DNA of 64,000 bases, from the NCBI RefSeq assembly GCF_001677475.2, contig NZ_CP015229.1, one strand, 5' to 3'. Position numbers and translations under genes: made by a program. Source of the stretch: Escherichia coli (lineage in GTDB: Bacteria > Pseudomonadota > Gammaproteobacteria > Enterobacterales > Enterobacteriaceae). Below, in pieces: positions 16,665 to 43,770 of this stretch (the first letter of the stretch is position 1; each line of letters begins with the position of its first letter). Under the pieces are notes generated by a model. That model ran no database searches and was not told the DNA's origin. It saw only the letters and a list, made by a program, of their open reading frames with translations.

Positions 16665-16740
16665 GCCGATATAGCTCAGTTGGTAGAGCAGCGCATTCGT
16701 AATGCGAAGGTCGTAGGTTCGACTCCTATTATCGGCACCA
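16665..16740 (+). tRNA. thrW: tRNA-Thr (anticodon CGU)
   Basis: 76 nt GCCGATATAGCTCAGTTGGTAGAGCAGCGCATTCGTAATGCGAAGGTCGTAGGTTCGACTCCTATTATCGGCACCA; cloverleaf with CGT anticodon and encoded CCA end. Confidence 0.95.
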
Positions 16741-16754
16741 TTTAAATCAATAAG

Positions 16755-17021
16755 TTACACATCATTAGTACCTTCCTTATTTCTTGACTGGGACAAATTT
16801 GGGACCGATGGGTTCAGAATCGAGTCTATTTGCCGTGCGTGTTCGGTAAGGTGATTAGGTGCGAGGTGAGCATATCGACGAACCATTTCAAGAGTTTCCC
16901 ATCCTCCCATTTCTGTAAGTGCAAGAAGAGAAACACTGGACTGAACCAGCCTGCTTGCCTTTGCTATCAAAGTACCTTGAGGACCAGATGATTTCTGGCG
17001 ATATTTACAGCGCGTCCGCAA
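16755..17021 (-). pseudogene. Tyrosine-recombinase (phage/P4-type integrase) C-terminal remnant
   Basis: Only about 50 C-terminal residues are integrase-like ([34 protein letters not shown], with the catalytic Tyr region); no N-terminal or core domains upstream; adjacent to the tRNA attachment site. Confidence 0.65.
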
Positions 17022-17107
17022 TGAGTTTTTCTCCGTGCCGCCAGTGACGTTCCCCGCTTTTTCAGTGCGGCGATAATATCAGCGGGATGCCAGTCCTGTT
17101 GTGTCAT
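16966..17107 (-). pseudogene. Ner/Nlp(SfsB)-like HTH regulator, 5' fragment fused to the integrase remnant
   Basis: Begins [24 protein letters not shown], matching the Ner/Nlp N-terminus as recalled, then diverges and stops after about 46 codons; a Ner-like segment (LIAKA) continues in the integrase-remnant frame. Confidence 0.45.
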
Positions 17108-17574
17108 ACAACCACCTCGCTGATAAATTTTACGCCGTCGGCGGTGCGCAGCCAGCGCGGGGCTTTGAGTCCTTCCATGAAATACCAGACCAGTTCACAC
17201 AACAGCCCGGTCAGGGTTTGTTCCGTTTTTGGTTCCGCCGGGCGTTCCAGCAGAAGCTGGAGTAGTGCGAGGCAGTATTCGCACAAGGAATCTGGTTCGG
17301 AAATAAAGTGCTCTGGTGTGGCGGGAAGGGTATCAACGGTCAGGCTTTCAATCAGATGCGGCGGGATGGGGTCGTGCAGCGTGGGGTGCAATAGCGCAAG
17401 AGCCGCGTGAAGCCGTCCGCAGAGCGCTAGCCGTAGCGCGGGATCGTCGGTTTCGATCAGGGTTTCGGCGAAGCGGGCGCAGTAATCGGCAAGGACAGTA
17501 AAATCCGTGGTGGCATTGAAGGGGGCGGACAGCAGATCGAGTAAATCGCAGTCAGGGGTGAGGGTTGTAGCCAT
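17104..17574 (-). CDS. Hypothetical protein, 156 aa, acidic and Leu-rich, no recognised domain
   Basis: ORF with an AGGAGA Shine-Dalgarno about 7 nt upstream of the ATG at 17574 (longest ORF starts at 17628); stop overlaps the ATG of the Ner-like fragment (ATGA); GC-rich relative to the neighbouring RT gene. Confidence 0.5.
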   Translation of the reverse strand: MATTLTPDCDLLDLLSAPFNATTDFTVLADYCARFAETLIETDDPALRLALCGRLHAALALLHPTLHDPIPPHLIESLTVDTLPATPEHFISEPDSLCEYCLALLQLLLERPAEPKTEQTLTGLLCELVWYFMEGLKAPRWLRTADGVKFISEVVV

Positions 17575-17917
17575 AGGGCGTCTCCTGTAACGGTTTATTA
17601 TGTCCGCCACTAGAGAGGCTAATCTCATGGGGGGCGGAACCGGACGGGGTTAGCCTTACCGGCGTTACAGGAAACCGGCGCGTCTTGCGACGCCCCCGCC
17701 CGGCCCGCCATTGAGGTGTAGCCGAACGCACGACACAAAAAAGACGCTGGTGCGTCAAGTGTCGCCTGTAACGGTTTTCAGGAGGCTAATCCCGACGCCT
17801 GATTTTGCAGGCGCGGGAGAAAGATACTGCGATTGGTCATGAGTGGCAAGGGCTACATCCTGTTTACCGACATCTCACGCAAAAATACCCTGATTATTAA
17901 TAGCGAAAATCAGTTTC

Positions 17918-20900
17918 TTATTTTGGCGGTAGCTTTTTGCGGTTCTTTGCCAATTGGAATCCTTCAGGTAACGGTTTGAATTTATCGCCGCCTTTAGGCC
18001 AGCGTTTTGCCCTGCTCTGAAATGCCCTTAACGAGTCGATATCCAGTGTTGCAGCGATCACAAAGTCATTATCGCCGCCCTTCACACGAGCAATATCACG
18101 CATAAAGGGTTCTTTTGCCGGGGAACGTACGCGACTATCGCCGTATTTTCGGTTATTCACTAAAATGGTATAGGCATGAATATCCAGCGCTGCTGATTCA
18201 ATCAACGATGCAAACGTATCCAGATCTTTATTCCAGCTCAATACCATTAATGCATCGAGCGCGCCCTGAAAACGGATCCTCGCTTTACTATTCTGGAGTT
18301 CAGAGCAAATCATAACGCCAAAATTGACGCCGTGATGAATATATACCGGCTTACGTTGTTTAACATTAAGTGTCGAGTCCCAAGACTTACCATAAGTTGA
18401 AAATAATGCCTCATCTTCACCTACGGCGGGTTCCAGCTTGGGTTGCCATATTTTGACACTCGCTGGATAGCCGAGTCTGTTATCTGAAAGGACAAGTACG
18501 GCCTCACTCTTCAGTTGATTATCGCCTAAGTGGCGGTATTCTGTTCCCGCAATTAGACTGATACCCGCCGAACTCAAACGATCAGCAATACTGTTAACCC
18601 AGCGTAACGGGATTGAAAGCTCGGGGAATAAAACATAATCAGGTTTAGGAGATAGTTTCAATGTTGCATTAACCAGTTCAGAAATCCGCTGGTACCTTGA
18701 ACGGGACAAGTTAGATTTATTGCAGGCCATTTTAGCCCAGTCGTCTTCCTCTGTTTTAATGCTGGTTAGCGCAACGACAATTTTATGTTTCCTGTCAGTG
18801 CCAATATGAATGAATTTCTTAGGCCGAGCTTTTTTTGTCGCTTCATCTGAGTCCTGCTCCGATGCTAGTAACGTCGGTTTGATCCATACACCGCGTAATG
18901 CTTGAGTATATTTTGCCCAAACGGTGGACGGTCTCTCATCTGGTTTTTTGTCGGATGTAGAGGGTAATCCAACACATTCGGGGGCCAGTTCTGATATTTC
19001 AGCGGGAGTTAAAGGACGTGTAGGGAAAATGTAAGGTAGGTAACTTTCGTTCTTACGATTTCCTTTAGCCACTTTTTCCAGTCGGGTATTCTTGGTTGAT
19101 TTCAAAAATAGCTTAATAACGTCAATATCAATAAGCGATGAGTCCCTCATTAATTTCAGTATTTTAACTTCTTTTTTACGATCACGCTGATTAACAAGTT
19201 TTTCTGCCGACTGACTCTTTACGATCTGTTTATAAGGTTCCTTTGCTAAATCAGCTCGAGCTACCAATGGCGCTTTTAAATAAAAATCTGCTGAATCAAA
19301 GCGAAGATCCAGTAAATCCTTTAGATTTGTCAGACTTTGTGAAATATGATTAAAAAATGTATCCGCAAGGCACTCTTCTTTCTTTGAACGTTTATCAAGA
19401 AATAATCTGTCAGGACTGTAATATCGTGTCGCTGCATCAACAAATAGCCAGCTTAATGTGCCTTTTATACAGCGCCAAAGATCATTTACTGCTCGAGTTT
19501 TGCAACCATTTATAGTCACTTCCTTACCTGAAGTAATCACCGATGCCAACAGGTTGATGGACTCGTAAGCTTTAAGTACAATTTTTTCCGCGTGCTGCCA
19601 TTCATTCATACTGATAGCAAAGCCAAGCAGCCTTGGCAGATAACTAAAATGTGCAAATAGATTATCAGCCCTAAGAATATGGTTGTAGGCAAACTGATAA
19701 AACTCTTCCCGCTGTTCTTTCCATTCACTTGGAGACAGATCTCGTGCCAGTGTTTCAACGTAGCGTAATTGCAGTGACCAGCCCAAACGACGAATGGTTA
19801 ATCCATCCGCACGGCGCAGAGTATCGGCATTTTCACCTACACTACCGGCAGCGGAAAGGACTTTAGCTGCGGTGGAGTGTTCCAGTTGATCCGGTGAAGG
19901 CATCAAGCGGTGTTCACTAGAAAGCTCGTAGATCTCCTTTTCGATACTGTCGAGCAGATCTATTCCTGCCCTCCCTTGAAGCACGAAAAGTTTTTGCTTA
20001 TCGGATTGTAACTGGATGGTGGTCTTACCCTGGAAATGCTCGCCCTGCTGTATTTGCCATATTTGTTTTTTCTCGTTTTTCAGATAAACGCAATCATTGC
20101 CAAGCCTATCTTGCAGCAATAACATAAATTCGTGATTATTAGTAATTTTACCTGTATCGCGTATTACAAGGAACATATCATCGACATAACGACCGTAGTG
20201 AATTGGCGACAGTTTTTCAATGACTAATTTATCCCAATGGTGTAGCAATATATTGGAAATGATCCGACTGGCTGTTAATCCAATGACCAGACCACCATTA
20301 ATAACAGGTGTTTTGTACGCTATTTTTTTTCCAAATGCCGCTGCGCCGTCAGACCAGTGCTTTAAGAATACAGCTAACTGTGCAGTAAACGCTTTTTCAT
20401 GCTCAGTCAGTTTTATGTTTAGTGTGTTATAGAGATCATCAGAGGTTATAGCCAGTGGATCAATAAAATGATAGTAACTTTTTAAATCCAGTGAGGCGGC
20501 GATAATGTCACGATCTTTTTCCAACTCGTCACGTATAGCTTTTAAGCCATCACCACGCCATTTTTGGTAGGGCTGGAAATAGGGGCTAAAAGAACCCACG
20601 GCACTGATATGGAATGGATTATCCTGCTCATTGCTAAATAATTCATCATTACGAATACGTTTTAGCCGCGCGCCATAACAACAGTTGTCTAAGCTGGCAT
20701 CAAATTTATGCCCGACCATATTAATCCATAGTGCAGAGATAATGTGACTATCAACCGGGAAGTCACCAATAATACGAAACTCTGGTATCAGATCAAAATT
20801 ATTAAATAAATGGTCGGCTGCTCGTTTAGGATTAGAAAAGTGGACGTGTCCATTTTGGAATTCATGTTTTTTCTTTGTGGTTAATTTTTTCGGTAACAAA

Positions 20901-21127
20901 CGAAATTTGCCAATCAACTTCTTATTGCTACTGAATCCATCTTCGCTCTGCAAAATATCTAAGAGTTCTTGCAGGTTTTCAATTAATTCCTGCTCATACT
21001 CGGCAAATTTGATAGCAACAGGAAATGTATTCTCAAAGAAGCTATCGGCTTTGGCTTTCCGGTAAGCGACCAGAAGGTCTTCAATCGTCAGATCATCCCA
21101 GCCAGTGAAAGTTGCCTGATATGTCAT
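17918..21127 (-). CDS. Reverse transcriptase fused to a C-terminal nitrilase (CN-hydrolase) domain; UG/Abi-type defence-associated RT (DRT type 1 / UG1-like architecture)
   Basis: 1069 aa. RT motifs: motif A ASLDLKSYYHFID, motif B GLVIGLTASRIISNILL, motif C YGRYVDDMFLV (about aa 310-320). C-terminal ~280 aa carry a nitrilase-like Glu/Cys pattern (VLFPELSIP ... GVMICSELQ). AT-rich gene in an island next to a tRNA. Confidence 0.85.
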   Translation of the reverse strand: MTYQATFTGWDDLTIEDLLVAYRKAKADSFFENTFPVAIKFAEYEQELIENLQELLDILQSEDGFSSNKKLIGKFRLLPKKLTTKKKHEFQNGHVHFSNPKRAADHLFNNFDLIPEFRIIGDFPVDSHIISALWINMVGHKFDASLDNCCYGARLKRIRNDELFSNEQDNPFHISAVGSFSPYFQPYQKWRGDGLKAIRDELEKDRDIIAASLDLKSYYHFIDPLAITSDDLYNTLNIKLTEHEKAFTAQLAVFLKHWSDGAAAFGKKIAYKTPVINGGLVIGLTASRIISNILLHHWDKLVIEKLSPIHYGRYVDDMFLVIRDTGKITNNHEFMLLLQDRLGNDCVYLKNEKKQIWQIQQGEHFQGKTTIQLQSDKQKLFVLQGRAGIDLLDSIEKEIYELSSEHRLMPSPDQLEHSTAAKVLSAAGSVGENADTLRRADGLTIRRLGWSLQLRYVETLARDLSPSEWKEQREEFYQFAYNHILRADNLFAHFSYLPRLLGFAISMNEWQHAEKIVLKAYESINLLASVITSGKEVTINGCKTRAVNDLWRCIKGTLSWLFVDAATRYYSPDRLFLDKRSKKEECLADTFFNHISQSLTNLKDLLDLRFDSADFYLKAPLVARADLAKEPYKQIVKSQSAEKLVNQRDRKKEVKILKLMRDSSLIDIDVIKLFLKSTKNTRLEKVAKGNRKNESYLPYIFPTRPLTPAEISELAPECVGLPSTSDKKPDERPSTVWAKYTQALRGVWIKPTLLASEQDSDEATKKARPKKFIHIGTDRKHKIVVALTSIKTEEDDWAKMACNKSNLSRSRYQRISELVNATLKLSPKPDYVLFPELSIPLRWVNSIADRLSSAGISLIAGTEYRHLGDNQLKSEAVLVLSDNRLGYPASVKIWQPKLEPAVGEDEALFSTYGKSWDSTLNVKQRKPVYIHHGVNFGVMICSELQNSKARIRFQGALDALMVLSWNKDLDTFASLIESAALDIHAYTILVNNRKYGDSRVRSPAKEPFMRDIARVKGGDNDFVIAATLDIDSLRAFQSRAKRWPKGGDKFKPLPEGFQLAKNRKKLPPK

Positions 21128-21422
21128 GCGTTATCGTCCTTAGATTAAAGTCTGTACAGAATTAGCCAGCCGTTTCATGCCCGAAGGAGGTGCTCTTGAC
21201 ACCAGTAATCCATCAGTGAGGCTGGCAATAATTTTGATTTGTATCCATGTTACACGCTCCCCGCAACCAGTCCGAGCATATATTTGTCACATTTTTCCCG
21301 AAAGTGATTAAGTTTGAATTTTTTGTTTAATGTCGATTTTTAGTCGACAAAATGAGGAATAAGTAAATTATTTCTTGCTGTGGCGTATCCCTGAACCTAC
21401 ACTGGTTTAAATATTTGTACTA

Positions 21423-22226
21423 ATGTCTATTCAGGGGCGACATTTGCCAAATTATCTAAACTGGCTGATGCAGAATACGCTACCCGGTCAGGTGCTGCTC
21501 CAGTCATGGCTTACCCGCAACGGCGTAGATCGTAAGCTCTCTTACCTCTATGTCCAGAATGGCTGGCTCAGGCGGATCGCTCACGGCGTATACTGCCGGA
21601 CGGGTCGTGAACCGGACTGGGTGGACGCGGTTTACTGCCTGCAAACACAGTGGGAAAAGCCAGTACGGGTGGCGGGGCTAACCAGCCTTGCGCTTCAGGG
21701 CCATGCGCACTATACCGAACCGGGTAAGCCGCAAATCTGGCTCGCGCTTCCGGCTTACGTCAAACTGCCGGGATGGTTTGCTGCCTTCGAACAATCTGCA
21801 ACATTTATCACGCTGTATACATCGGGCCTTACCGTTGATGTCACGTCATTTACTACGGAACTGAAAATTGGCGACCGGCAGTTAGCAGGCAGTGCCCCGG
21901 AACTGGCCGCGTATGAGATCGCCTGCGGCGTTCCTTCGTTGATATCGTTCGAACATGCCGATGCTCTGTTTCAGGGGATGAATCTTCTCAGCCCGCGTAA
22001 ATTGCAGGCGTTACTCTGCGCCAGTCATTCGGTTAAAACCAACCGGGTGATGCTTTACCTTGCCCGGCGTAATGGACACCCTTATTTTCAGTATATTGAT
22101 CAAAGCGGTATAGAAACAGGTACGGGAAAGCGGCAAATCATACCCGGCGGCTGGCTGGAGCCGGATTATCAAATTACTGTTCCACGCGAATTTAAACCGG
22201 AAGGAGTCGAAGATGGATCTGCGTGA
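21423..22226 (+). CDS. AbiEi-family antitoxin / transcriptional regulator (type IV TA, abortive infection)
   Basis: 267 aa; N-terminal winged-helix pattern (LTRNGVDRKLSYLYVQNGWLRRIAHGVYCRTG) typical of AbiEi; overlaps the downstream nucleotidyltransferase gene by 14 nt. Confidence 0.65.
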   Translation: MSIQGRHLPNYLNWLMQNTLPGQVLLQSWLTRNGVDRKLSYLYVQNGWLRRIAHGVYCRTGREPDWVDAVYCLQTQWEKPVRVAGLTSLALQGHAHYTEPGKPQIWLALPAYVKLPGWFAAFEQSATFITLYTSGLTVDVTSFTTELKIGDRQLAGSAPELAAYEIACGVPSLISFEHADALFQGMNLLSPRKLQALLCASHSVKTNRVMLYLARRNGHPYFQYIDQSGIETGTGKRQIIPGGWLEPDYQITVPREFKPEGVEDGSA

Positions 22227-23133
22227 TAGCTATACCCGGCAGGTCAAACTGTTGATGGCCGCTCTGCCGCATGTGGCGAAGGAGTCCTGTTTCGCGTTGA
22301 AAGGCGGCACGGCAATCAATTTGTTTGTGCAGGATTTTCCCCGTCTGTCGGTGGATATCGATCTGGCGTATAAGACTTTTGCGGATCGCGATACCGATTT
22401 GACGGCGATCAACGACGCTTTGAAGAGAATTACTGCATCGCTGAACAGTAAACCGGGGATTACCGCGATTCGGCAGGAAAATAAAACGGATGAAAAGCGC
22501 ATCATTGTGAATACGGCTGATGCCCAGATTAAGATCGAGGTTAGTCCGGTCTGGCGTGGGCTGTTGTTGCCTCCGGCAGAAATGTCGGTGTGCGAACGTG
22601 TGGAAATGGAGTATGGCTTCACCACTATGAGTGTCGTTTCGCTGGCGGATCTTTATGGCGGTAAAATCTGCGCAGCGCTTGATCGTCAGCACCCGCGCGA
22701 TCTGTTTGATGTGCTGAATATGCTGGAGAAACCGGGACTGATGCGGGAGATCTTTGACGGTTTTCTTTGTTATCTGGCAGGCCATCCCCGCCCCATTGCC
22801 GAGTTGCTGGCCCCAAACTGGGATACAGAGCGGATCACGACGCTGTATGCCCAGGAATTTTCGGGGATGACTCAGCAGGAAACGTCGCTGGAATCGCTGC
22901 TGTCAGTAACGACTTTGCTGCCGCAGGCGTTGAAGTCACATCTTACGGATCTGGATCGCGAGTTCTTGCTCAGTTTTAAGCAAAACAGCCCTGACTGGTC
23001 GCGGTATCGCTATCCTGAAATTCAGCATCTTCCGGCTATTCGCTGGAAGCAACGCAATCTGGCGGTGCTTAAAGATAAAAATCCGGCGAAGTATGTGGCG
23101 GCGGTGAATAAGCTAGAGAGGGTGCTGGAGTAA
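22213..23133 (+). CDS. AbiEii/AbiGii-family nucleotidyltransferase toxin (DUF1814)
   Basis: 306 aa; N-terminal LKGGTAINLF and DIDLAY motifs of the AbiEii nucleotidyltransferase fold; translationally coupled to the upstream AbiEi-like gene. Confidence 0.75.
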   Translation: MDLRDSYTRQVKLLMAALPHVAKESCFALKGGTAINLFVQDFPRLSVDIDLAYKTFADRDTDLTAINDALKRITASLNSKPGITAIRQENKTDEKRIIVNTADAQIKIEVSPVWRGLLLPPAEMSVCERVEMEYGFTTMSVVSLADLYGGKICAALDRQHPRDLFDVLNMLEKPGLMREIFDGFLCYLAGHPRPIAELLAPNWDTERITTLYAQEFSGMTQQETSLESLLSVTTLLPQALKSHLTDLDREFLLSFKQNSPDWSRYRYPEIQHLPAIRWKQRNLAVLKDKNPAKYVAAVNKLERVLE

Positions 23134-23538
23134 TATTCTTAGCGCTGTTCAGGGACTCTGAATTGGGCCATGATGCTTTGGTTATATGAATAACTTCGTG
23201 GCCATAACTCAAACATATTCATTTAATTCAATACATAGCACCATCGAGTAAGAGATCGCTGAGTCATTAGACGATCTCTGCTCGTGGAAATACGAAACTA
23301 TCTCTTTCCAAAGCTGATCTGAATAACATTATCTGGAGCATCATTATTAGACCTGATGATCTCATGCTCAATAAAATCCCCCCATTTCAAAAAAAGATCC
23401 CGTAATTTTTCCGCCTGCTGCCCGACCTGATAAGTTCTGATTAATCTGTCTTTCGGAACATGATTCAACAGAAGTTCTATAAGCCGTTCTGGCGCATCCA
23501 GATACTCAGCACAGCCTGTAGAGTGCAGGTGCAGACAT

Positions 23539-25259: not shown

Positions 25260-25470
25260 AGAATAACTTTTACATTCACGTTTTATTAAATATGTCAGAA
25301 GGAAAATTTATATCCACCTGTTTTGCATAGCAAGATGCATTATGTATTGCTCACCCCGAAGGAGATGAAGTTTTAATTACAGAAGGAGTATTTTCTCTTG
25401 GAGTAAATATGGCTCATGTTTAATGCCTATGTATATAAAACTCATCCTCTCAATTGTCAGGAGAATTAAC

Positions 25471-25701
25471 ATGAATACTATCTGTTCTTTAATTGTTGTG
25501 GTTACACTGTCTTTATTATCATTCAGTAGCGTCGCCAAAACGATTACTGCCGTCGGTTCAACCATCGACAGCACTGAAAAAGAAATTTCTTTACAGGCAG
25601 AAAAACAAGGAAAATCATATAAAATTCTGGGCGCATTTTTCAAGAACAGAGTTTATATTATAGCAAAGTTAACACCAGTCAGTAAAAATGATGCTTCATA
25701 A
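25471..25701 (+). CDS. Small secreted DUF1471 (YdgH/BhsA/McbA-like) protein
   Basis: About 76 aa with a signal peptide (MNTICSLIVVVTLSLLSFSSVA) and a mature part resembling the BhsA/YhcN family; boundaries uncertain. Confidence 0.5.
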   Translation: MNTICSLIVVVTLSLLSFSSVAKTITAVGSTIDSTEKEISLQAEKQGKSYKILGAFFKNRVYIIAKLTPVSKNDAS

Positions 25702-25752
25702 GGCTCATGATATAATTTTTAAGACATGATCAAGAAGCACGTTTATTTATTC

Positions 25753-25880
25753 ATATACTCTAAATAATTCAAGTTGCAGGAAGGCGACAAGTGAGTGAAT
25801 CCCCAGGAGCTTACAAAAGTAAGTGACTGGGGTGAATGAACGCAGTCGCAGCACATGCAACTTGAAGTATGACGAGTATA
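25753..25880. repeat. ERIC/IRU element, copy 2
   Basis: Over 90% identical by eye to the copy at 6873-7008 (GTGAATCCCCAGGAGCTTAC ... AAGTAAGTGACTGGGGTGAATG). Confidence 0.85.
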
Positions 25881-26031
25881 ATTATCATTATTATGGCCAT
25901 GGAATACCTGACAAATGACGCTACCCCAACCTTCTGTACCAGTCGTTCTGCTAATTCTACCGATGCTTCGGTCTGGAGTGGTAGAGTAATATTAGACACA
26001 GTTTTATTTTCTCTCTTTTTCGAGGGCTGTA

Positions 26032-26297
26032 TATGAACAGGAAGAATACATCCCTAAGCGGTTAATGCTGGCGTAATCAATAGACCAGCATTAATCACAG
26101 ATGATTATCAATCAGACAGAAATGGTTAAATCGTCGAATTCATAATTAATACTTTTTGTAACGCCGCTGAATAGCTTGAAAAGGATGTATATTTTAAATA
26201 TCAGTGAAGTGAACAGTTTATTGCCGTTATTAATAGAAATGGAGGAATAAATACGCGTATTCTACTATTGCAACAAAAACAACGATATTGATCATTT
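26032..26297. repeat. Intergenic repeat module, intact copy (two halves contiguous)
   Basis: First half matches 44674-44784 and second half matches 45478-45622 (for example TATTTTAAATATCAGTGAAGTGAACAGTTTATTGCCGTTATTAATAGAAATGGAG); contains an internal inverted repeat TTAATGCTGG...CCAGCATTAA. Confidence 0.7.
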
Positions 26298-26527
26298 TTC
26301 ATAATGAAGTAACCTGACAGATATAAAAATGTTGATTGAGGCTAAATGCCCGGATGAAGGTTGTCGAGGGAGCCAGGTTGTTTTTTCTTTTGGATGATCT
26401 CCATTGCTGGATAGTCCCCTTGTACAGATAAGTCTGCTCTTTCTCGCTCAAAGCAGACCCTGGAATTGAACGCAGAGTGACTACCTGACACAATATTGCA
26501 CCGTGAAGAGTCGGTCGTTGTTAACGT

Positions 26528-27412
26528 TCAGATTTTCAATGTATCAATGACCATCCGCAGAGCGGGGGAGACGTTGCGATGAGGGTAATAGAGAAACAAT
26601 CCCTCCATTCGCAGGCTGTAACGCTGCAACACTCTGATAAGCTTACCGTGTTCTAAATCATCCGCGACCAGTTCAACAGGAACATAGGCCAATCCGAGGC
26701 CCAGCCGGGCTGCTTCTGCTTCCATATAGCTGTCGGATAAGGCCCATTGCCCTTCAGGGCGATGAGTGATTTTTTTATCATCCTGATTGAGTTCCCACTG
26801 GTATACGCTGCCGTCGGCAAACTGATAGGCGATACAGGGATGCGCCTTTAAATCCGCCGGGGTTTGCGGAAAACCATAGCGACGAAAATGTTCCGGAGTC
26901 CCCACAATTGCCATCTCCATATCGGGCGTGATGCGTACCGCGACCATGCCCTGACCGACTTCAGGCCCCAGGCGGACACCTGCATCGAATCTTTCCTCGA
27001 TGATATCGACGAACCGGCTCTCATTTATCAGTTCAAGCCGGATATCAGGATATCGCTGTTTAAATACCGCCAGCTTTGGCAGCAGGCATTTATCAATCGC
27101 GTGCTGGCTGGCATTGATACGCACCGTGCCGGAGGGCGTCTCTCGATAGTGCGCCAGCGTGGCAAGCCCAAGATCTAACATTTCAAATCCAGATGCCGTC
27201 TTCTGGTAGAGCTGCTCGCCTGCTTGTGTCAGCGACAGTTTACGCGTGGTGCGCACTAGCAGCTGGACGCCCAGCCTTTCTTCAAGCTCGCGAACAGAAC
27301 GGCTGACTCCTGACTGAGCAAGACCCAGCCGCTGAGCTGCTGCGGTAAAGCTGCCTTCCCGCACCACCTGCATAAACAGGTACAGCTCGTTGTAGTTCTC
27401 CCTTTTCGCCAT
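26528..27412 (-). CDS. LysR-family transcriptional regulator (position of K-12 yagP)
   Basis: 294 aa, HTH (FTAAAQRLGLAQSGVSRSVRELE); divergent from a hydrolase/MFS gene pair. Confidence 0.85.
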   Translation of the reverse strand: MAKRENYNELYLFMQVVREGSFTAAAQRLGLAQSGVSRSVRELEERLGVQLLVRTTRKLSLTQAGEQLYQKTASGFEMLDLGLATLAHYRETPSGTVRINASQHAIDKCLLPKLAVFKQRYPDIRLELINESRFVDIIEERFDAGVRLGPEVGQGMVAVRITPDMEMAIVGTPEHFRRYGFPQTPADLKAHPCIAYQFADGSVYQWELNQDDKKITHRPEGQWALSDSYMEAEAARLGLGLAYVPVELVADDLEHGKLIRVLQRYSLRMEGLFLYYPHRNVSPALRMVIDTLKI

Positions 27413-27598
27413 TGAAACATCCCCCCTTCATGCCGGCAATCTCCGCATTAATTTATAACAATATGGTATTAATCTTAGCATTAATCGCCCCCTAATCAGC
27501 ACTAATTCTGCTCATTATAATGACCCCATCAAAGCAAAGCACCGCAGCGTTGTCCGTCGGAAACCTGTATCTCTCTGTTGTTTTTTATGGGGATTTTT

Positions 27599-28735
27599 AT
27601 GAAAGCCTTCACCCGAACGCTAAAAACCGCGATGCCGACCATGTTGCTTTTCGCATCATTAAGTGGAGTCACGACAATGAGTTATGCTGATTCAACCAAT
27701 CCTAATGCCCCTGTGTCCATGACAGATAAATGGGATAAAACGTTCGCCGAGAGCCAGAAAGTCGATCACCGTAAAGTCTCGTTCCCGAACCGATATGGCA
27801 TCACCTTAGTGGGCGATCTTTACCTGCCTAAAGACCGTGGCGATCGCAAACTGGCGGCGATTGCGGTCAGTGGGCCATTTGGCGCGGTGAAAGAGCAATC
27901 CAGCGGCTTGTATGCGCAGACGCTGGCGGAACGAGGGTTTGTTACCCTGGCGTTCGATCCTTCTTACACCGGGGAAAGCGGCGGCTATCCGCGAAACGTC
28001 GCCTCACCGGATATCAACACTGAAGATTTCAGCGCGGCGGTGGATTTCTTAGGGCTGCAAAAAGAGGTAGATCGCAACCGTATCGGGCTGCTCGGTATTT
28101 GTGGCTGGGGCGGCATGGCGCTGAACGACGCGGCGATGGATACCCGCGTTAAAGCGGTAGCTACCAGCGTGATGTATGACATGAGCCGGGCGATGGGTCA
28201 TGGTGTGGGGGATGGCAAAGACCGTTATTCTATCGCCGACCGTCGTGCTGTTCTGCAATATCTGAATGAACAGCGCCGGAAGGATGCGCAGAGCGGAACG
28301 TTCGCTCACGGTGGTCATGATATTAATGTCGATAGCAACGGCAAGGTCAGTGCTGGCGAGCGCATTCTGCCAGAAACGCTGCCGGCAAATCCTCATCCGG
28401 TACTGAAAGAGTTCTTTGACTACTATCGCATGCCGCGCGGCTTCCACGAACGTTCCGTTAACTCTACCGGGGCGTGGACGGCAACGATGCCGCTGTCATT
28501 TATGAATATGCCGCTGTTGAGCTACGCCAGTGAAATCACCATTCCGACGCTGATTGTGACCGGTGAGAAAGCACATTCACGTTATTTTGCTGAAGATGCT
28601 TACAAGGCGGTTGGCAGTAAAGACAAAGAGCTGGTGGTGGTACCAGGGGCAAATCACGTGGACCTGTACGATAACGTGGCCGGAAAAATACCTTTCGCGA
28701 AGTTCGAACAATTTTTCCAGACCAAACTGAAATAA
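27599..28735 (+). CDS. Secreted alpha/beta-fold hydrolase
   Basis: Signal peptide, then an alpha/beta hydrolase-like core (GICGWGG nucleophile-elbow-like motif); start taken at MKAFTRTLK. Confidence 0.7.
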   Translation: MKAFTRTLKTAMPTMLLFASLSGVTTMSYADSTNPNAPVSMTDKWDKTFAESQKVDHRKVSFPNRYGITLVGDLYLPKDRGDRKLAAIAVSGPFGAVKEQSSGLYAQTLAERGFVTLAFDPSYTGESGGYPRNVASPDINTEDFSAAVDFLGLQKEVDRNRIGLLGICGWGGMALNDAAMDTRVKAVATSVMYDMSRAMGHGVGDGKDRYSIADRRAVLQYLNEQRRKDAQSGTFAHGGHDINVDSNGKVSAGERILPETLPANPHPVLKEFFDYYRMPRGFHERSVNSTGAWTATMPLSFMNMPLLSYASEITIPTLIVTGEKAHSRYFAEDAYKAVGSKDKELVVVPGANHVDLYDNVAGKIPFAKFEQFFQTKLK

Positions 28736-28810
28736 AACCTCTCCTGAATTGATGCAAAGCCACCGGTCTATGGCAGGTGGCTTTTATCCTGATCTTTGTG
28801 AAATTTCACT

Positions 28811-30004
28811 ATGTCGACACTAAGCCAAACACTATCACCTCATCATCAGCGCGCATACTGGGGCGGTATTTTTGCCATGACCCTGTGCGTGTTTGTGCTG
28901 ATTGCTTCTGAATTTATGCCCGTCAGCCTGCTCACGCCGATTACCCGCGATTTAGGCGTGACGGAGGGGCTTGCAGGGCAGGGGATTGCTATCTCCGGCG
29001 CGCTGGCGGTTCTGACCAGCCTGACGCTTTCAACGCTAGCTGGAAAGATGAATCGTAAGTTCCTGCTGCTGGGGATGACGGTTCTGATGGCCGTATCGGG
29101 GCTTATTATTGCGCTGGCTTCCAGTTATCTGATGTATATGGTCGGTCGTGCGATGATTGGGGTGGCCATTGGCGGTTTTTGGTCGATGTCAGCGGCAACG
29201 GCGATTCGTCTGGTGCCGCAGCATCAGGTTACGCGTGCGCTGGCGATTTTCAACGCCGGTAATGCGCTGGCGACGGTCGTGGCCGCGCCGCTGGGAAGCT
29301 ATCTGGGGGCCACGGTCGGATGGCGAGGCGCTTTCTTGTGCCTGGTGCCTATCGCGGTTGTCGCCTTTATCTGGCAGTACATCAGCCTGCCCAGTATGGA
29401 TGCGAATAAAAGCCACACGTCAGCTGGCGATGTATTCCGCATACTTAGCCGCCGCGTGATTGCGGTTGGCATGCTGGCCTGCGGCCTGTTTTTCATGGGG
29501 CAGTTTGCACTATTCACCTATGTGCGCCCGTTTCTGGAGTCGGTGACACGGGTTAATTCCTTAGGCTTGTCGTTGATTTTGCTGATTATCGGCGTGGCCG
29601 GTTTTATTGGCACGCTGGTTGTTTCGGCATTTCTCAACAGAAAATTCTACCCCACGCTGATGGCCATACCCGGACTGATGGCCGTCATTGCTATCGGTCT
29701 GATGCTTACCGGGCATCACGTCTGGACGGTCTCGCTGCTGTTAGGACTCTGGGGCATGCTGGCCACCGCCGCGCCAACCGGATGGTGGACATGGATTGCG
29801 CGTACGTTGCCTGACAACGCCGAAGCCGGAGGCGGCCTCATGGTCGCGGTGATTCAGCTCGCCATCGCCCTTGGATCAACGGCAGGAGGCATCGTGTTTG
29901 ACCGCCTTGGCTGGCAGAGTACGTTTGCCATGAGTAGCGTGCTGCTCCTTTGCGCGGGCGTACTGACCTTTGTTACCGCACGCCAGAAGGCCGGTGCGTT
30001 TTAG
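28811..30004 (+). CDS. MFS-family transporter
   Basis: 397 aa, about 12 predicted transmembrane helices, MFS-like loop motifs. Confidence 0.8.
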   Translation: MSTLSQTLSPHHQRAYWGGIFAMTLCVFVLIASEFMPVSLLTPITRDLGVTEGLAGQGIAISGALAVLTSLTLSTLAGKMNRKFLLLGMTVLMAVSGLIIALASSYLMYMVGRAMIGVAIGGFWSMSAATAIRLVPQHQVTRALAIFNAGNALATVVAAPLGSYLGATVGWRGAFLCLVPIAVVAFIWQYISLPSMDANKSHTSAGDVFRILSRRVIAVGMLACGLFFMGQFALFTYVRPFLESVTRVNSLGLSLILLIIGVAGFIGTLVVSAFLNRKFYPTLMAIPGLMAVIAIGLMLTGHHVWTVSLLLGLWGMLATAAPTGWWTWIARTLPDNAEAGGGLMVAVIQLAIALGSTAGGIVFDRLGWQSTFAMSSVLLLCAGVLTFVTARQKAGAF

Positions 30005-30183
30005 TCCGGCGAGGGGGCGCGTTGCTGAATAAGTTACACACGGCGATGAGCGCCCACTATGGGTTGGGCGCTCTTTTAAACGATTTAGGTGATTTTCTAA
30101 AACGGCTACTGCAAATTTTTCTCTTAATTTATGGGTATTTCCCCCGGAGGCGAGAAAGCGCTCTCCACGCCCGGCCGCAAGGA

Positions 30184-31140
30184 TCAGGACGACGGGGGCA
30201 GGCATGAATCCTCCTCCAGATGGAGACGTACAGAGGCAACTTCTGCCAGCACAGAGAGGGCCAGTGTATGCGCATCCCGGGCTTTGGGGAATATCCCGAT
30301 GGGTGCCCGGATTTGCGCTGTCTCCTCCCTGGACCATCCCAGCTCGTGGAGCTTTTGCAGACGTAAAGTGTGGGTTCGATAGCTGCCCAATGCGCCGAGA
30401 TAAAAGGGTTTTGCCTCTCGCGCGGCCTGCAACACTGGCAGCTCCCGGTTGAGATCATGGCACAGCAAAATGACCGCCGTATCGGTATCGATCTGAGCGC
30501 TGGCTGAGGCCGGAAAAAGATCGAAGATATGGTTGTCATAGCCTGTGGCTGCTGCAAGACTCGCGGTTGCCTGCGCCTCAAGAGAACCTCCGTAAATCAA
30601 CAGCCTGACGCATGGCCTGAACCCTACCTCAAAGCCATTGAGATTCCAGCCCGTTCGGGTTTGCGTGGGCAGGCACACCAGCGATTGTGCTTGCGGATCA
30701 TAGCGCAGCCCCGCCGGTTTTCTCTGTTCCAGGCGGTTCAGCACGGCGAGCAGAGGCTGTGCCGTGCGTAGTTTATGGAGCGTCAGCGTGATCCCACCGC
30801 CGCAGGGCAGAACGATGTCAAACCACGGCGAACCTTCGCCATAGCGAATTTCGCGATCGCAGCCTGAGCCCATCATCTCCAGCGCTTCAAAAGCGGCAGC
30901 GGCCTCCACGCAGCCGCCAGAGACAAAACCGCAGTAACGACCATCTTCGCGCACCACCATCTGCGCCCCGAGCGGGCGCGCCGCGCCGCCGCGTATCTCC
31001 ACCAGCGTCACCAGCACCGCTCCTTTACCGGACATTAGCGCCTCTACGGCGAAGCGCAGAATGGTCCGGTGGTCATCGGTGAGAAACGCCTGCTCTGGCT
31101 TATGCCAGTGTTCGTCTTTGTCAAAAAGCGGGTATGACAT
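30184..31140 (-). CDS. paoD: Molybdenum cofactor insertion chaperone, XdhC family
   Basis: 318 aa; last gene of the paoABCD operon; XdhC/CoxI-like. Confidence 0.85.
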   Translation of the reverse strand: MSYPLFDKDEHWHKPEQAFLTDDHRTILRFAVEALMSGKGAVLVTLVEIRGGAARPLGAQMVVREDGRYCGFVSGGCVEAAAAFEALEMMGSGCDREIRYGEGSPWFDIVLPCGGGITLTLHKLRTAQPLLAVLNRLEQRKPAGLRYDPQAQSLVCLPTQTRTGWNLNGFEVGFRPCVRLLIYGGSLEAQATASLAAATGYDNHIFDLFPASASAQIDTDTAVILLCHDLNRELPVLQAAREAKPFYLGALGSYRTHTLRLQKLHELGWSREETAQIRAPIGIFPKARDAHTLALSVLAEVASVRLHLEEDSCLPPSS

Positions 31141-31149
31141 TGTTCCTCC

Positions 31150-33348
31150 TTAAACCACATCCGGCAGCTTATCGAGCAGCTTATCCAGAGTGATGGGATA
31201 ATCCCGTACCCGAATACCGGTGGCGTTATACACCGCGTTGGCGATAGCCGCGCTCACGCCGCACAGGCCCAGCTCACCGACACCTTTGGCCTTCATCGGG
31301 GAGGATATGGGGTCGGTATCATCCAGGAAAATCACCTCCTGTTTTGGGATATCCGCATGGACCGGCACCTCATACCCCGCCATATCGTGATTAACGAAGT
31401 AGCCCAAACGGTCATCCACCGCCAGCTCCTCCATCAGTGCCGCGCCCATGCCCATAGTCATTGCGCCAATGACCTGGCTGCGTGCAGTTTTCGGATTCAG
31501 GATGCGTCCTGCAGCACACACAGCGAGCATACGCCGGACCCGAACTTCTCCCGTCGCGCTATGCACGCCGACCTCCACAAAATGCCCGGCAAAGGTCGAC
31601 TGCTGGTACTCCTTGCTCAGTGTTCCGAATTCAATGCTCTCTTCCGCTGTCAGTCTGCCGCCTGCGGTGGCCTCACGTAGCGTGGCGCTACGGGTACCGT
31701 TGGTAATCTTGCCGTCGGCAAACTGCGACTGCTCAGGATCAAACCCGACAGCCGAGGCAATCATTTCGCGAAGTTTCACGCAGGCGGCGTAAACGCCAGA
31801 GGTGGAGGTATTCGCGCCCCATTGTCCGCCAGAACCCGCAGAAACCGGGAAACTGGAATCGCCGAGGTGAACCGCAACCTGCTCCAGCGGTACGCCAAGC
31901 ATTTCCGCTGCCGTCTGGGCCAGAATGGTGTAGCTGCCGGTGCCAATGTCGGTCATGTCCGTTTCTACGGTAACGGTGCCGTTTTGTTCGAGGTGAACCC
32001 GAGCACCCGATTTTTCCAGCAGATTATTGCGGAAGCCCGCCGCAACACCGTGGCCGACTAGCCACTCCCCGTCGCGCACCTGTCCGGGTGTGGCGTTGCG
32101 CTGCTTCCAGCCAAATTTATCCGCTCCGGTGCGCAAGCACTCGATAAGCTGACGGCGAGAGAAGCGGCGCGTCGGGTCGGCGGGGTCAACCTGAGTGTCA
32201 TTCAGGATGCGAAACTCGACGGGATCGATGCCCGCTTTTTCCGCCAGTTCGTCGATCGCGATTTCGAGCGCCATCAGACCGGGGGCTTCGCCGGGCGCAC
32301 GCATGGCGTTCCCTTCCGGCAAATCAAGCGTGGCGAGCCGCAGGCCGGTATGACGGTTTGCCCCTGCGTAGAGTAATTCGCTTTGCTGTACCGCCGTTTC
32401 CGGCGTGCCGCCGGGCAGGTTTCCGGACCAGCTTTCATGTGAGATAGCGGTGATTTTCCCGCTCTGGTCAGCACCGATACGCAAGTGCTGAAGGGTGGCG
32501 GGGCGGTGCGTGGTGTTATTGGGAATAGTGGGGCGGGGGAGCATCACTTTAACCGGACGTTTCACCGCACGGGCAGCGAGGGCCGCCAGCAGCGCATCGC
32601 TTCTCAGGAACAGCTTGCCGCCAAACCCTCCTCCGATATACGGGGAGATAATACGCACATTCTCCACGGGCACTTTCAGCGTTTTTGCCAGATCGGTGCG
32701 GCACCAGTCAATCATCTGATTTGAGGTCCAGAGGGTAAGCTTATTTCCATCCCAGACGGCCATCGAGGCATGTGGCTCCATCGCCATATGGCTCTGGTCC
32801 GGGGTCGTGTAGGTAGCATCAATCTTCACCGCAGCGGAGGTGAAAGCCCCGTCAAAGTCACCGACGTTTTTGTCGGGCGTGTCTTCCGGCGGCTGATTGA
32901 CGGCCTGTTTTTCGTCCGCCAGGGAGTAAGCTCCTTTATTACGGCGATAGTGCGCCTGCAACAGCGAGGCCGCCGCTCGCGCCTGTTCGAAGGTCTCGGC
33001 CACTACCAGCGCAATGGCCTGATGATAGTGCTCAATAGTGGGGCCGCCTAACAGCCTGGCGGTGTTTTTGTCGCCTTTGTCGAGTGCCCCGGCGTTACTG
33101 GCGGTAATGACAGCCAGTACGCCCGGCGCTTTTTGCGCGGCGTCCGTATCAAGGGCGGTGAGGCGTCCTTTGGCAATGGCGGAACCGACGATATAGCCAT
33201 AGGCGGCGTTGGGGGCTTCTTCATGCCATTCGTAGGCGTAGCGTGCCGTGCCGGTAGTTTTCAGCGGTCCGTCGATGCGGTCATGGGGACGACCGACAAC
33301 CTTCAGCTGATCGATCGGGTTTTCCCCTGCGGGTTTATCAAATTTCAT
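31150..33348 (-). CDS. paoC: Periplasmic aldehyde oxidoreductase, molybdopterin-binding large subunit
   Basis: 732 aa, xanthine dehydrogenase/aldehyde oxidase-family molybdopterin domain. Confidence 0.9.
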
Positions 33349-34301
33349 GCCTGTGCCCTCGCTTCAGCCAGTACGGAGGCAAGCGTTCGCTTCGCCAACA
33401 GGAGTTTAAAGGTGTTTTCAGCGGTGGGATGGGCGCTGGCGAACAGCGCGTCATATACGGCCTGCGCCCCCTGGGATAGCTGAGCATCCGCAGCCTCAAT
33501 GCGCCAGGGCTTATGTGCTACTCCGCCCAGCGCGACGCGCCCGCTGCCGTCAGGCTGAATAATCGCTGCGACCGATACCAGGGCAAAGGCGTAGGAGGCG
33601 CGATCGCGCACCTTACGGTAAATATGTTTTCCGCCGAGCGGCGGAGGTAATGTCACCGCAACGATAAGCTCACCGGGAAGCAGGGCGGTTTCAATGTGCG
33701 GCGTTTTCCCCGGTGGGTGATAAAAATCAGCCAGTGTGATACTGCGAGTCTTTCCCTCCGGCGTGATGGTTTCCACCACCGCATCCAGCAACCGCATTGC
33801 GACCGCCATATCGCTCGGATGGGTGGCAATGCAGGCTTTGCTTACGCCTACCACCGCGTGCTGACGGCTAAAGCCTTCAAGTGCCGCGCAGCCGCTCCCG
33901 GGCAGGCGCTTATTGCAGGGCTGATTGGTGTCGTAAAAATAGGGGCAGCGCGTGCGCTGGAGCAGATTACCTGCGGTGGTTGCCTGATTACGTAACTGAC
34001 CAGACGCGCCAGCGAGCAGAGCGCGGGAGAGTACCGCGTAATCACGACGCACGCGCTCGTGAGCCGCCAGGTCGGTGTTCCGTACCAGTGCGCCGATGCG
34101 CAGCCCACCCGCGTCGGTCACTTCAATCTTATCGAGCCCGAGCCCGTTCACATCGATAAGGTGGGTGGGCGTTTCAATTTCCAGCTTCATCAGGTCCAGC
34201 AGATTGGTCCCGCCAGCGATAAATTTTGCGCCGGGTACGCGCTGAGCGCTAAGTGCCGCCTCGGCCGGGGTGTTCACTCGTTCATAGGTAAACGCCTTCA
34301 T
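33345..34301 (-). CDS. paoB: Aldehyde oxidoreductase FAD-binding subunit
   Basis: 318 aa, FAD-binding domain of the CO-dehydrogenase/xanthine dehydrogenase type; overlaps paoC by 4 nt. Confidence 0.9.
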
Positions 34302-34987
34302 GATTTTATCTCCCCCGCAGCGTCTTCAATGGCGGCAAGGATGTTAGCGTATGCTCCACAGCGACAGATGTTACCGCTCATACGTTCACGGATCTCATCG
34401 GCCGTTCTTTCTGGAGGGGAAACCAAATCGACCGTGACGTGACTGGGAATGCCGTCCTGAATCTCTTTTAGCACCGCTACTGATGAGCAAATTTGCCCGG
34501 AGGTGCAGTAGCCGCACTGGAAGCCATCATGCTTGATAAAGGCCGCCTGCATGGGGTGAAGATTATCTGGTGAACCCAGGCCTTCAATGGTGGTGATCTC
34601 GGCCCCCAGATGCATGACTGCAAGCGTCAGGCAGGCATTAAGCCTGCGACCATTGACCAGCACGGTACAGGCTCCGCACTGTCCGTGATCGCAACCTTTC
34701 TTGGTACCGATCAGATGCAGATTTTCACGCAAAGCGTCCAGTAGCGTGGTTCGGGTATCCACCTCAAGCTGCTCGGTTTTGCCGTTCACCTTAAGTGTCA
34801 GGGGCATTATCTCTGGCGCGGGTGTAGCTGCCGGAACGCTTGCCGCAAACGTAGAATGAGGATAAACCACGGCGGTCGCCGCCGTTGCGGCGCTCACTTT
34901 AATCAGATCGCGACGGGTCAAACTAAAATCGTGCGGCTCGTGCTTCCCAACCCGATTATCTTCGGGGTATTCGCTTTGGTTGCTCAT
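34298..34987 (-). CDS. paoA: Aldehyde oxidoreductase [2Fe-2S] subunit with Tat signal
   Basis: 229 aa; twin-arginine motif ([17 protein letters not shown]) and two Cys clusters for 2Fe-2S centres. Confidence 0.9.
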
Positions 34988-35404
34988 ACCAGGCCTCCGG
35001 TATTCTAATGGGGAAAATAAGAGTGCGTTGCGAGAGTGCTGATGCTTTTTTAAACGTTAAGCATAGTCGGCGACAGCAGGAGGATTATTCTTAAAACGCG
35101 AATGCAGCTATGAGCCCGGCTAATAAATTCATGTTCGCCGGGATGTTGATGATGATGGGAGCTGGTTTATTGCTTTAGTTGTACGATGCAAAAACCGATA
35201 AGGAAACCTGTGATTGTCAGCTCTGCATCACCCTGCAAATCTTTGTCACTTCTAATATAAAAATATGGAGAAATGATGGTGCTTATATTCATTGGCGATT
35301 AGGAAACCATCTTGTTATACAAAACAATACAGTTCTTTACATTTGCTTTGTTTTATGAATACTCCTAAAGAGGTGTATAACATAATGGTACAAGCAGGGT
35401 AGAT

Positions 35405-36019
35405 ATGAATATATTTGAACAAACTCCACCGAACCGCAGACGTTACGGTCTTGCTGCATTCATTGGGCTGATTGCTGGCGTTGTTTCCGCATTTGTGAAG
35501 TGGGGGGCTGAAGTTCCATTGCCGCCACGTAGCCCGGTGGATATGTTTAATGCAGCGTGTGGCCCGGAATCATTAATCAGGGCTGCTGGGCAAATTGATT
35601 GCTCCCGTAATTTTCTCAATCCTCCGTATATTTTTCTTCGGGATTGGTTGGGGCTGACAGATCCAAATGCGGCTGTTTATACCTTCGCCGGGCATGTCTT
35701 TAACTGGGTTGGTGTAACGCACATAATCTTTTCGATAGTTTTTGCCGTTGGTTACTGTGTGGTCGCCGAAGTATTTCCGAAAATTAAACTTTGGCAGGGT
35801 TTACTGGCAGGTGCTTTAGCCCAACTTTTTGTTCATATGATTTCTTTCCCTCTCATGGGACTGACGCCACCTCTGTTTGATCTTCCGTGGTATGAGAATG
35901 TCTCTGAAATTTTTGGACATTTAGTCTGGTTCTGGTCTATTGAAATTATTCGCAGAGATTTACGAAACAGAATTACTCATGAGCCAGACCCTGAGATCCC
36001 TTTAGGCTCAAACAGATAA
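35405..36019 (+). CDS. yagU: Inner-membrane protein YagU (DUF1440)
   Basis: 204 aa, several TM helices; conserved position after the pao operon. Confidence 0.8.
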
Positions 36020-36033
36020 TGTAATGAATGATA

Positions 36034-43158: not shown

Positions 43159-43770
<612 letters not shown>

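Follow-up and report, generated by a model that had tools for sequence, protein, structure and literature searches.

The intergenic segment at positions 26032-26297 of the window (the whole 64,000-nucleotide stretch of E. coli DNA analysed here) occurs a second time in the same window, where it is split around the ykgM and ykgO genes. This raises the question of how the two copies are related. An earlier note, made from the sequence alone, placed the ykgM-ykgO cassette inside a repeat unit that also exists empty, and offered that the unit could be a MITE-like element, a recombination target, or a duplicated regulatory or sRNA region. Our analysis shows that the short copy is a decayed segmental duplicate, an ordinary gene relic.

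The repeat pair and the intact ykgL-ykgO-ykgM-ykgR locus

BLASTN of positions 25532-26797 against the window gave two colinear matches on the plus strand. Positions 26033-26182 align to 44673-44823 (74.2% identity over 151 columns, E 7e-21) and positions 26182-26298 align to 45505-45621 (93.2% over 117 columns, E 7e-46). Global pairwise alignment bore both matches out, and the window itself contains two matches to the repeat. The two-piece match reported in the earlier note is thus real, with slightly shifted borders. Its left piece, given as 44674-44784, matches but ends 39 nt further on, at 44823, inside ykgO; its right piece, given as 45478-45622, matches but starts at 45505. The two pieces are contiguous in the first copy (copy 1) and 681 bp apart in the second (copy 2).

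The two copies are direct repeats around a segment of 18.4 kb (26303-44672). According to the annotation of the closest genome this segment holds a yagP-like LysR gene (26528-27412), an alpha/beta hydrolase, an MFS transporter, paoDCBA, yagU, ykgJ, ecpEDCBA-ecpR and the 5' part of ykgL, and copy 2 is followed by fdeC. To the left of copy 1 the window carries, in this order, proBA, thrW (16665-16740), an island (~16759-23521), a LysR gene, an SDR gene, a hypothetical gene that is weakly BhsA-like (25423-25701) and a dispersed repeat. Copy 1 had been described as lying at the edge of the thrW island, which is approximate: it lies 2.5 kb beyond the island, but in some other E. coli the variable region does reach into it.

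Copy 2 is the Zur-regulated ykgM-ykgO operon, which encodes zinc-independent L31/L36 paralogues, in its K-12 arrangement. The gene positions are those that RefSeq gives for K-12 and the closest complete genomes. The gene ykgL (44525-44752, plus strand, 75 codons) is followed by ykgO (44787-44927, minus strand, type B ribosomal protein L36), ykgM (44927-45190, minus strand, type B ribosomal protein L31) and ykgR (45553-45654, minus strand, 33 codons), which together with its 3' flank spans 45505-45654. Just upstream of ykgM lies the palindrome TGTTATGTTATAACATAAC (45201-45219), which we take to be the Zur box of the ykgM promoter. The placing of ykgO, ykgM and this palindrome between the two pieces of copy 2 agrees with the annotation and the sequence.

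The left half of the repeat begins in copy 2 with the final ~25 codons of ykgL, including a hairpin, and continues through the ykgL-ykgO spacer into the last 12 codons and the stop codon of ykgO (44787-44823, the only part of ykgO with a counterpart in copy 1). The right half (45505-45625) comprises 48 bp of the ykgR 3' flank and ykgR codons ~12-33. Neither ykgM nor the palindrome has a counterpart in copy 1. The Zur box, ykgM and the bulk of ykgO are gone from copy 1, which therefore cannot supply the zinc-sparing function of the operon. In K-12, ykgL and ykgO form a convergent overlapping transcript pair (PMC12288877). The left half of the repeat is made up of this overlap region.

Copy 1 is built of gene ends

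We aligned copy 1 to the genes of copy 2. Positions 26033-26112 (plus strand) align to 44673-44752 and represent what is left of the ykgL 3' end (~codons 50-75), in which a premature TAA (26074-26076) interrupts the reading frame. Positions 26146-26185 (minus strand) correspond to the last 12 codons and the stop codon of ykgO, and translate as PFQAIQRRYKKY before the stop. In this stretch 26 of 40 nt are identical to the 3' end of ykgO. The similarity is in frame and in register with the flanking homology, and the stop codon is kept at the same position. Four other copy 1 sequences, two from E. coli and two from a divergent Escherichia lineage described below (lineage X), share 26-29 of these 40 nt with ykgO. 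For the five copy 1 sequences the probability of such a match is ~2e-7 to 2e-9, or 1e-5 to 1e-7 when corrected for placement. The other E. coli and lineage X copies resemble ykgO more than the copy in the window does; for example, lineage X has CGT AAG AAA AAG TGT TGA where ykgO has CGT AAG AAA AAA CGT TGA. This is as predicted for decay from a real ykgO.

The right half of copy 1 belongs to ykgR. Positions 26186-26229 (minus strand) are a copy of its 3' flank, within a 93% match to 45505-45552, and positions 26230-26302 (minus strand) align to ykgR codons ~12-33 and the stop codon. PGAP annotates this stretch as a pseudogene, and the RefSeq label at the equivalent spot in other E. coli genomes is 'ykgR, incomplete, missing N-terminus'. 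In the window the remnant forms a 21-codon open reading frame, MINIVVFVAIVEYAYLFLHFY (26230-26295, minus strand), with 20 of 20 amino acids identical to YkgR. Its 21-residue translation scored 43.9 bits on the NCBIfam YkgR model NF041474 (cutoff 40), covering profile positions 13-33 of 33. The similarity to the YkgR family (NF041474, PF28062) thus goes with a lost N-terminus, and the homology stops at about codon 11-12. The view that the module has no convincing open reading frame was partly right; however, the module is made of the ends of three annotated genes.

The ykgL end, the hairpin, the ykgO end, the ykgR flank and the ykgR end are all colinear and on the same strand in the two copies. 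Copy 1 (26033-26302) is very probably a decayed second copy of ~1 kb that once ran from about codon 50 of ykgL to about codon 11 of ykgR and has had its middle deleted.

The probable deletion junction and the limits of the homology

The two halves of copy 1 meet at 26182-26186, between two A-runs, one within ykgO (CTTAAAA) and the other upstream of the ykgR 3' flank (ACAAAAA). We infer that a single deletion between these short runs took ~0.67 kb out of copy 1, comprising all of ykgM, the bulk of ykgO, the Zur box and the promoter region. The same junction is found in lineage X (loci L012-L017), with ~8-10 nt more of the right-hand sequence (GCAGAGGG, compared with GGGAGAGG in copy 2). The ancestral deletion therefore measured ~0.67 kb, and copy 1 of E. 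coli later shed a few bases.

Outside copy 1 the homology ends on both sides. To the left of ~26025 nothing significant was found when a profile of five copy 1 sequences (25882-26040) was compared with the ykgL 5' regions of three lineages (best E 0.13). To the right of ~26302, positions 26303-26527 gave no BLAST similarity to the 5' region of ykgR. A MAFFT alignment suggested that 29 bp are deleted within the ykgR remnant, which would preserve the start codon of ykgR; we dropped this reading, since TTTCAT alone speaks for it. A 47-codon open reading frame at 25893-26036 was also considered as a small gene and rejected. Its length is kept in lineage X, ~17 of its 47 residues differ there, it has no family match, and it is probably not under purifying selection.

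The extra copy could have come from either a duplication within the genome or a homologous fragment imported from a relative. Both origins fit the data, because the left half of copy 1 shares 67-75% identity with every copy 2 sampled and an intact paralogue of the copy 1 lineage was not found: among the hits to a YkgR pattern there was no second intact ykgO-ykgM beside the LysR gene. This degenerate pattern of the YkgR C-terminus was scanned over one genome per species in GTDB r220. It occurred in Escherichia only, besides two tiny contaminant contigs (99% E. coli) and two chance hits. Homologues of the neighbouring LysR protein are found at 80-90% identity in Kluyvera, Enterobacter, Klebsiella, Citrobacter and others, and are so widespread that they are uninformative on the relic.

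Arrangement of the locus across Escherichia

To see how copy 1 is distributed we used a 291-bp query on 5426 complete E. coli genomes. There were 1-4 BLAST places per genome, with a median of 2. Copy 2 counts as two BLAST places; the places always fall in the same two loci, with at most two loci per genome. A full copy 1 is present in 912 of the 5426 genomes, O157:H7 and O145:H28 among them; most E. coli lack it or have a truncated form, and K-12 lacks it. In some genomes a variable region cuts into copy 1 from the left, and the hits cover positions 47-291, 49-291 or 135-291 of the query.

Lineage X comprises six loci of a divergent Escherichia that were reached through the SDR protein of 'E. 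coli' E69 (CP089930.1). CAKAKC010000001.1 is a further complete genome of this lineage. It is 92.8% identical to the window over an 8.9-kb stretch ending at proBA-thrW. The order in lineage X is proBA, thrW, LysR, SDR, the hypothetical gene, a homologue of window positions 25880-26298 (84%) and then a homologue of positions 45502-46107 (81-87%). Nothing equivalent to window positions 26299-45501 (19.2 kb) is present at this locus. Lineage X thus has a single hybrid copy, in which the left half and the junction of copy 1 are fused to the ykgR and right flank of copy 2. The hybrid carries a called full-length YkgR of 33 amino acids (PF28062).

Two further arrangements were found. The L006/L019 lineage has proBA-thrW-ecpEDCBAR-ykgL-ykgO-ykgM-ykgR, with neither copy 1 nor the pao genes. 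In Escherichia sp. E1V33 the homologue of the thrW flank is joined ~100 bp from the equivalent of position 45453, and the locus has ykgR and no ykgM-ykgO. There are thus at least four architectures between thrW and ykgR across the genus. The proBA identities are 94.9% between the window and L019, 92.8% between the window and lineage X, and 93.8% between L019 and lineage X. Since the three lineages are about equidistant, none of them is an outgroup to the others, and the difference between E. coli and lineage X could reflect a deletion in lineage X or, less probably, an insertion in E. coli.

We also searched the 5426 complete E. coli genomes for the hybrid, deleted state with a chimeric query (copy 1 left half and copy 2 right flank). 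It was found in none of them, which means that recombination between the two copies is at best rare in E. coli.

Mosaic history of the two copies

The two halves of copy 1 have different nearest relatives. We made a spliced alignment of ten repeat copies and computed Fisher's exact test by hand. In the left half, copy 1 of E. coli is 74.7% identical to copy 2 and 89.3% identical to lineage X. In the right half, it is 93.1% identical to copy 2 and 86.2% identical to lineage X, while copy 2 and lineage X share 89.7%. Eleven sites of the left half join copy 1 with lineage X against all copies 2, and none joins copy 1 and copy 2 of E. coli. For the right half the counts are zero for copy 1 with lineage X and three for both E. 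coli copies against all others. The exact probability of these counts is 1/364 (~0.003). Under a relaxed criterion the right half has ~5 such sites in 117 bp (for example, GAACAGTTTATTGCCG versus AAATTGTTTTNTGANG).

The left half, together with the shared junction, indicates that the relic predates the split between E. coli and lineage X. The pattern of the right half indicates that the E. coli copies exchanged sequence after this split, or that the right half was duplicated later. Paralogues within the lineage are closer than orthologues, this closeness is confined to one tract, and the site patterns there, three sites under the strict criterion, disagree with those of the adjacent left half. 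We therefore propose, with moderate confidence, that the right half of copy 1 continues to recombine with the ykgR locus and that in E. coli it was homogenised with this locus by gene conversion, which would account for its 93% identity next to 74% in the left half.

The following order of events would account for the observed structures. A copy of ~1 kb (ykgL'-ykgO-ykgM-ykgR') would have arrived between the BhsA-like gene and the yagP-like LysR gene. With the intact copy 18 kb away, this extra copy would have decayed, with its middle lost by a microhomology deletion and its frames broken. In E. coli the left-over tract of 117 bp, bounded by two heterologies, would then have been homogenised with ykgR. 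In lineage X a crossover between the right halves would have deleted 19.2 kb, including the only intact ykgM-ykgO. The first two events, a duplicate copy followed by decay and deletion, are well supported and we regard them as very likely. The last two, conversion in E. coli and crossover deletion in lineage X, are the simpler reading of the comparisons and we hold them with moderate confidence. Of the functions proposed in the earlier note, the recombination target is the only guess that gained support, from the single hybrid of lineage X without the 19.2 kb and from the homogenised right halves.

Such events are known from repeats such as rrn operons, IS copies, Rhs elements and tuf genes. 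As in these systems, the segments have the same orientation, one relative has a hybrid without the interval, and copies within the species are more similar than orthologues between the lineages. Unlike in these systems, the tract is just ~117 bp long at 93% identity and the exchange is unseen in 5426 E. coli genomes. A tract of this length and identity comes close to the minimum that RecA needs for efficient exchange.

The events could also have run in the reverse direction. The hybrid seen in lineage X would then be ancestral, with ykgM-ykgO already lost, and E. coli would have regained the 19 kb from a relative. The mechanism would be a Campbell-like crossover in the ykgR region that duplicated the right half on integration. 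We consider both the direction and this mechanism rather unlikely, at about one chance in a handful. They explain the 93% identity of the right halves, the E. coli-specific bases that these have in common and the 74% identity of the left halves without gene conversion. An S-T-S structure is what a single-crossover integration is expected to produce, and between lineages the ecp genes (86.7% identity) have diverged further than proBA (94.9%). However, a circular or illegitimately joined donor ending inside ykgR would be required, and if the right halves were reciprocal chimeras of donor and recipient, the donor would be 7% diverged in them yet 26% diverged 0.7 kb away. Moreover, the adjacency of ecp, ykgL, ykgO, ykgM and ykgR is common to E. 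coli and the L006 lineage, and all four architectures can be derived from that of E. coli by deletions alone.

It is conceivable, if doubtful, that a 19-kb block (LysR-hydrolase-MFS-pao-yagU-ykgJ-ecp-ykgL-ykgO-ykgM) moves into and out of Escherichia chromosomes by homologous recombination at ykgR, with the two ykgR-containing repeats acting as its ends. If this were true, a lineage would gain or lose the ECP pilus, the zinc-sparing ribosomal proteins and the periplasmic aldehyde oxidoreductase together, and the relic would be both the scar and the substrate of this exchange.

The hairpin and possible functions of copy 1

Next, we turned to the inverted repeat that the earlier note had seen inside the module. 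A repeat search found it at 26062-26071 and 26085-26094. It forms a hairpin, TTAATGCTGG and CCAGCATTAA around a 13-nt loop (26062-26094), for which folding gave z-scores of -3.7 and -4.7. Its homologue in copy 2 lies close to ykgO and consists of TTAATGTTGGTGT and ACACCAACATTAA around a 7-nt loop (44703-44735). On the minus strand of copy 2 the hairpin lies directly downstream of ykgO and within the 3' end of ykgL, with an AT-rich stem of 15-16 bp followed by UUUU; a simple terminator scanner made no call. Judged by its position and sequence, it is likely the terminator of ykgO. The copy 1 stem is preserved, but neither strand has a U-tract after it, and the scanner again made no call.

The stem reads TTAATGTTGG/CCAACATTAA in copy 2 of E. 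coli and TTAATGCTGG/CCAGCATTAA in copy 1, in lineage X and in copy 2 of E. albertii. One compensatory pair (C-G to T-A) thus separates copy 2 of E. coli from the others, and this change arose in the functional copy, copy 2. The copy 1 stem is unchanged between E. coli and lineage X, for which we estimate a chance of ~0.055 at their divergence.

These observations bear on the possibility that copy 1 is retained because it is functional, either by encoding a 21-residue transmembrane peptide (a truncated YkgR) or through its hairpin or 3' region, which would serve the LysR or BhsA-like genes next to it as a terminator or a small RNA. The ykgR fragment in the window does begin with ATG and differs from ykgR by synonymous changes only over 20 codons, and the well-folded stem (z ~ -4) is unchanged in lineage X. 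However, the ATG is specific to the lineage and is replaced by CCG in the two other E. coli copy 1 sequences examined, and no ribosome-binding site was seen upstream of it. Therefore, the synonymous-only pattern fits recent conversion from ykgR, of which it is the expectation, better than selection on a peptide. For the RNA, there is neither a U-tract nor a terminator call. Searches of both copies with the Rfam 15 covariance models gave nothing at the gathering threshold, and relaxing E to 1 added just one match, to a plant miRNA model, whose 19.8 bits fall far short of the gathering score of 130 and are noise. The proposed sRNA or regulatory region thus has no match in Rfam. Finally, copy 1 is missing or truncated in most E. 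coli, K-12 included. A retained function is therefore improbable. Copy 1 itself probably does nothing, because in most strains the ykgR fragment has no start codon and the hairpin has no U-tract.

Copy 1 as an empty site or a mobile element

The split of the repeat around ykgM-ykgO could suggest that a module of ~260 bp served as a target, that the ykgM-ykgO cassette was inserted into it in copy 2 and that copy 1 is the empty site. In agreement with this, copy 1 joins the two pieces without a gap, and in copy 2 they are separated by 681 bp. However, copy 1 already holds the last 12 codons and the stop codon of ykgO: the left piece reaches 37-40 nt into the ykgO coding sequence with its stop conserved, and the right piece comes from a different gene, ykgR, of which it covers the C-terminal two-thirds. 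An empty site cannot hold in advance the end of the gene to be inserted or two-thirds of ykgR; copy 1 must therefore derive from a duplicated segment by deletion. The A-run microhomology at the junction likewise suits a deletion, and in E. albertii and the L006 lineage ykgO-ykgM-ykgR is intact with no cassette boundaries visible. We consider the empty-site reading highly improbable.

In looking for traces of transposition we searched 25950-26380 for terminal inverted repeats and found none: the only inverted repeats were the internal hairpin and imperfect chance pairs of 9-10 nt, none of which lies where the homology ends. A direct repeat that could be a target-site duplication was likewise not present at the module ends, at 25950-26380 or, specifically, between 26025-26033 and 26298-26305; repeat families of 10-11 nt were internal and imperfect. 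The dispersed repeat at 25754-25879, 150 bp to the left of copy 1, has a second copy at 6870-7009 (matching 25742-25881 at 92%) and is presumably an ERIC/IRU element. Lineage X and other E. coli lack it at this site, and it is therefore an insertion separate from copy 1.

Copy 1 does resemble MITEs and ERIC/REP repeats in being short, AT-rich, palindrome-bearing and intergenic by annotation. It differs from them in that it is made of gene ends and occupies two fixed loci instead of dozens. Although copy 1 is AT-rich, has an internal palindrome and lies near the ERIC-like repeat and a tRNA-linked island, a MITE-like or other small mobile element is very hard to reconcile with gene fragments in native order, with at most two fixed loci per genome instead of many copies across 5426 E. 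coli, and with the lack of terminal inverted repeats and target-site duplications. That only two copies exist in these genomes, as part of a segmental duplication, is the very finding that the earlier note had named as speaking against its proposal.

Discussion

The ykgM-ykgO Zur operon, the small membrane protein YkgR, and deletion and conversion between direct repeats are all textbook knowledge. In the literature on ykgR, ykgL, and ykgM with thrW we found no published description of the relic or of the S-T-S arrangement. Copy 1 resembles pseudogene relics of other enterobacterial segmental duplications in its truncated coding sequences, high identity to the parent, internal deletion, lost starts and patchy presence among strains. 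Compared with the existing PGAP call of a ykgR pseudogene, the ykgL and ykgO remnants, the shared junction and the link to the intact locus are unannotated.

What appeared to be a pair of empty and filled sites is really a decayed duplicate beside an intact locus. A search for gene ends should therefore come first when a short AT-rich intergenic repeat looks like a mobile element or a cassette. The relic is also a rare genomic change, in which one shared deletion junction ties E. coli to a divergent Escherichia lineage. The current view of the Zur regulon and of ykgR is unaffected by these findings. At least one lineage appears to have lost ykgM-ykgO at this site, and this could affect its growth under zinc limitation.

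Sequences flanking the relic

In the complete E. coli genomes (n=5426), the relic, the decayed partial duplicate of the ykgL-ykgO-ykgM-ykgR locus at 26033-26302, was found at no more than about 96% identity (query 26020-26310), while for the ykgM region of the window the identity reached 98.7%. The explanation is either unusual polymorphism of the relic or the absence of the window strain's lineage from the complete genomes.

Immediately to the left of the relic, the window carries an insertion of a dispersed repeat of about 126 bp (25754-25879), which we take to resemble an ERIC/IRU element. The window has two copies of it with 92% identity (the match spans 25742-25881 and 6870-7009), and it is present in about six places per E. 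coli genome, for the most part in unannotated spacers. At the site next to the relic, the repeat was found neither in lineage X, the divergent Escherichia lineage with a single hybrid copy, nor in the closest E. coli.

A 47-codon ORF (MAMEYLTNDATPTF...) on the plus strand at 25893-26036 ends exactly where the ykgL-like homology starts. Its counterpart in lineage X (about 11240-11385 of locus L012) has the same length and stop, with about 17 of the 47 residues different and a nucleotide identity of about 84%. We observed no match to it among NCBIfam models, and the ORF is probably not a conserved gene. The E. albertii locus (L004, 5018-6200) has ykgR, ykgM and ykgO in unchanged order, we saw no intact ORF of ykgL length opposite ykgO there, and in the ykgL 3' region the identity is no higher than about 67-69%; ykgL may not be a conserved protein-coding gene.

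Very short contigs from assemblies of two unrelated Firmicutes, Sulfoacidibacillus thermotolerans (contig122, 403 bp) and Alkalicoccobacillus porphyridii (NODE_260, 264 bp), each match the E. coli ykgR region at 99% identity and are almost certainly E. coli contamination.

Arrangements between thrW and ykgR

The island adjoining the thrW tRNA gene (about 16759-23521) is missing in the lineage-X loci L012 and L017. It contains an AbiEi/AbiEii pair, an integrase fragment and a 1069-aa ORF annotated in the closest genome as an RNA-directed DNA polymerase, and at its left end Rfam matched C4 antisense RNA (17627-17715) and isrK (17737-17814). It has the appearance of a defence island, one end of which is P4-like or satellite-like. 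Further along, the pao-yagU-ykgJ stretch holds a full-length Rfam match to IS009 RNA (36025-36223, 193.5 bits).

Two further architectures were observed in the genus. In Escherichia sp. E1V33 (L008, 9255-10363), a sequence homologous to the 3' end of thrW and its flank (window 16722-16958) is separated by about 100 bp from the counterpart of window position 45453; ykgR is present and ykgM-ykgO are absent from the locus. In the L006/L019 lineage (15466-16663 in L019/L020), thrW adjoins ecpE directly, without pao, yagU, ykgJ or the relic. The genus Escherichia therefore has at least four arrangements between thrW and ykgR.
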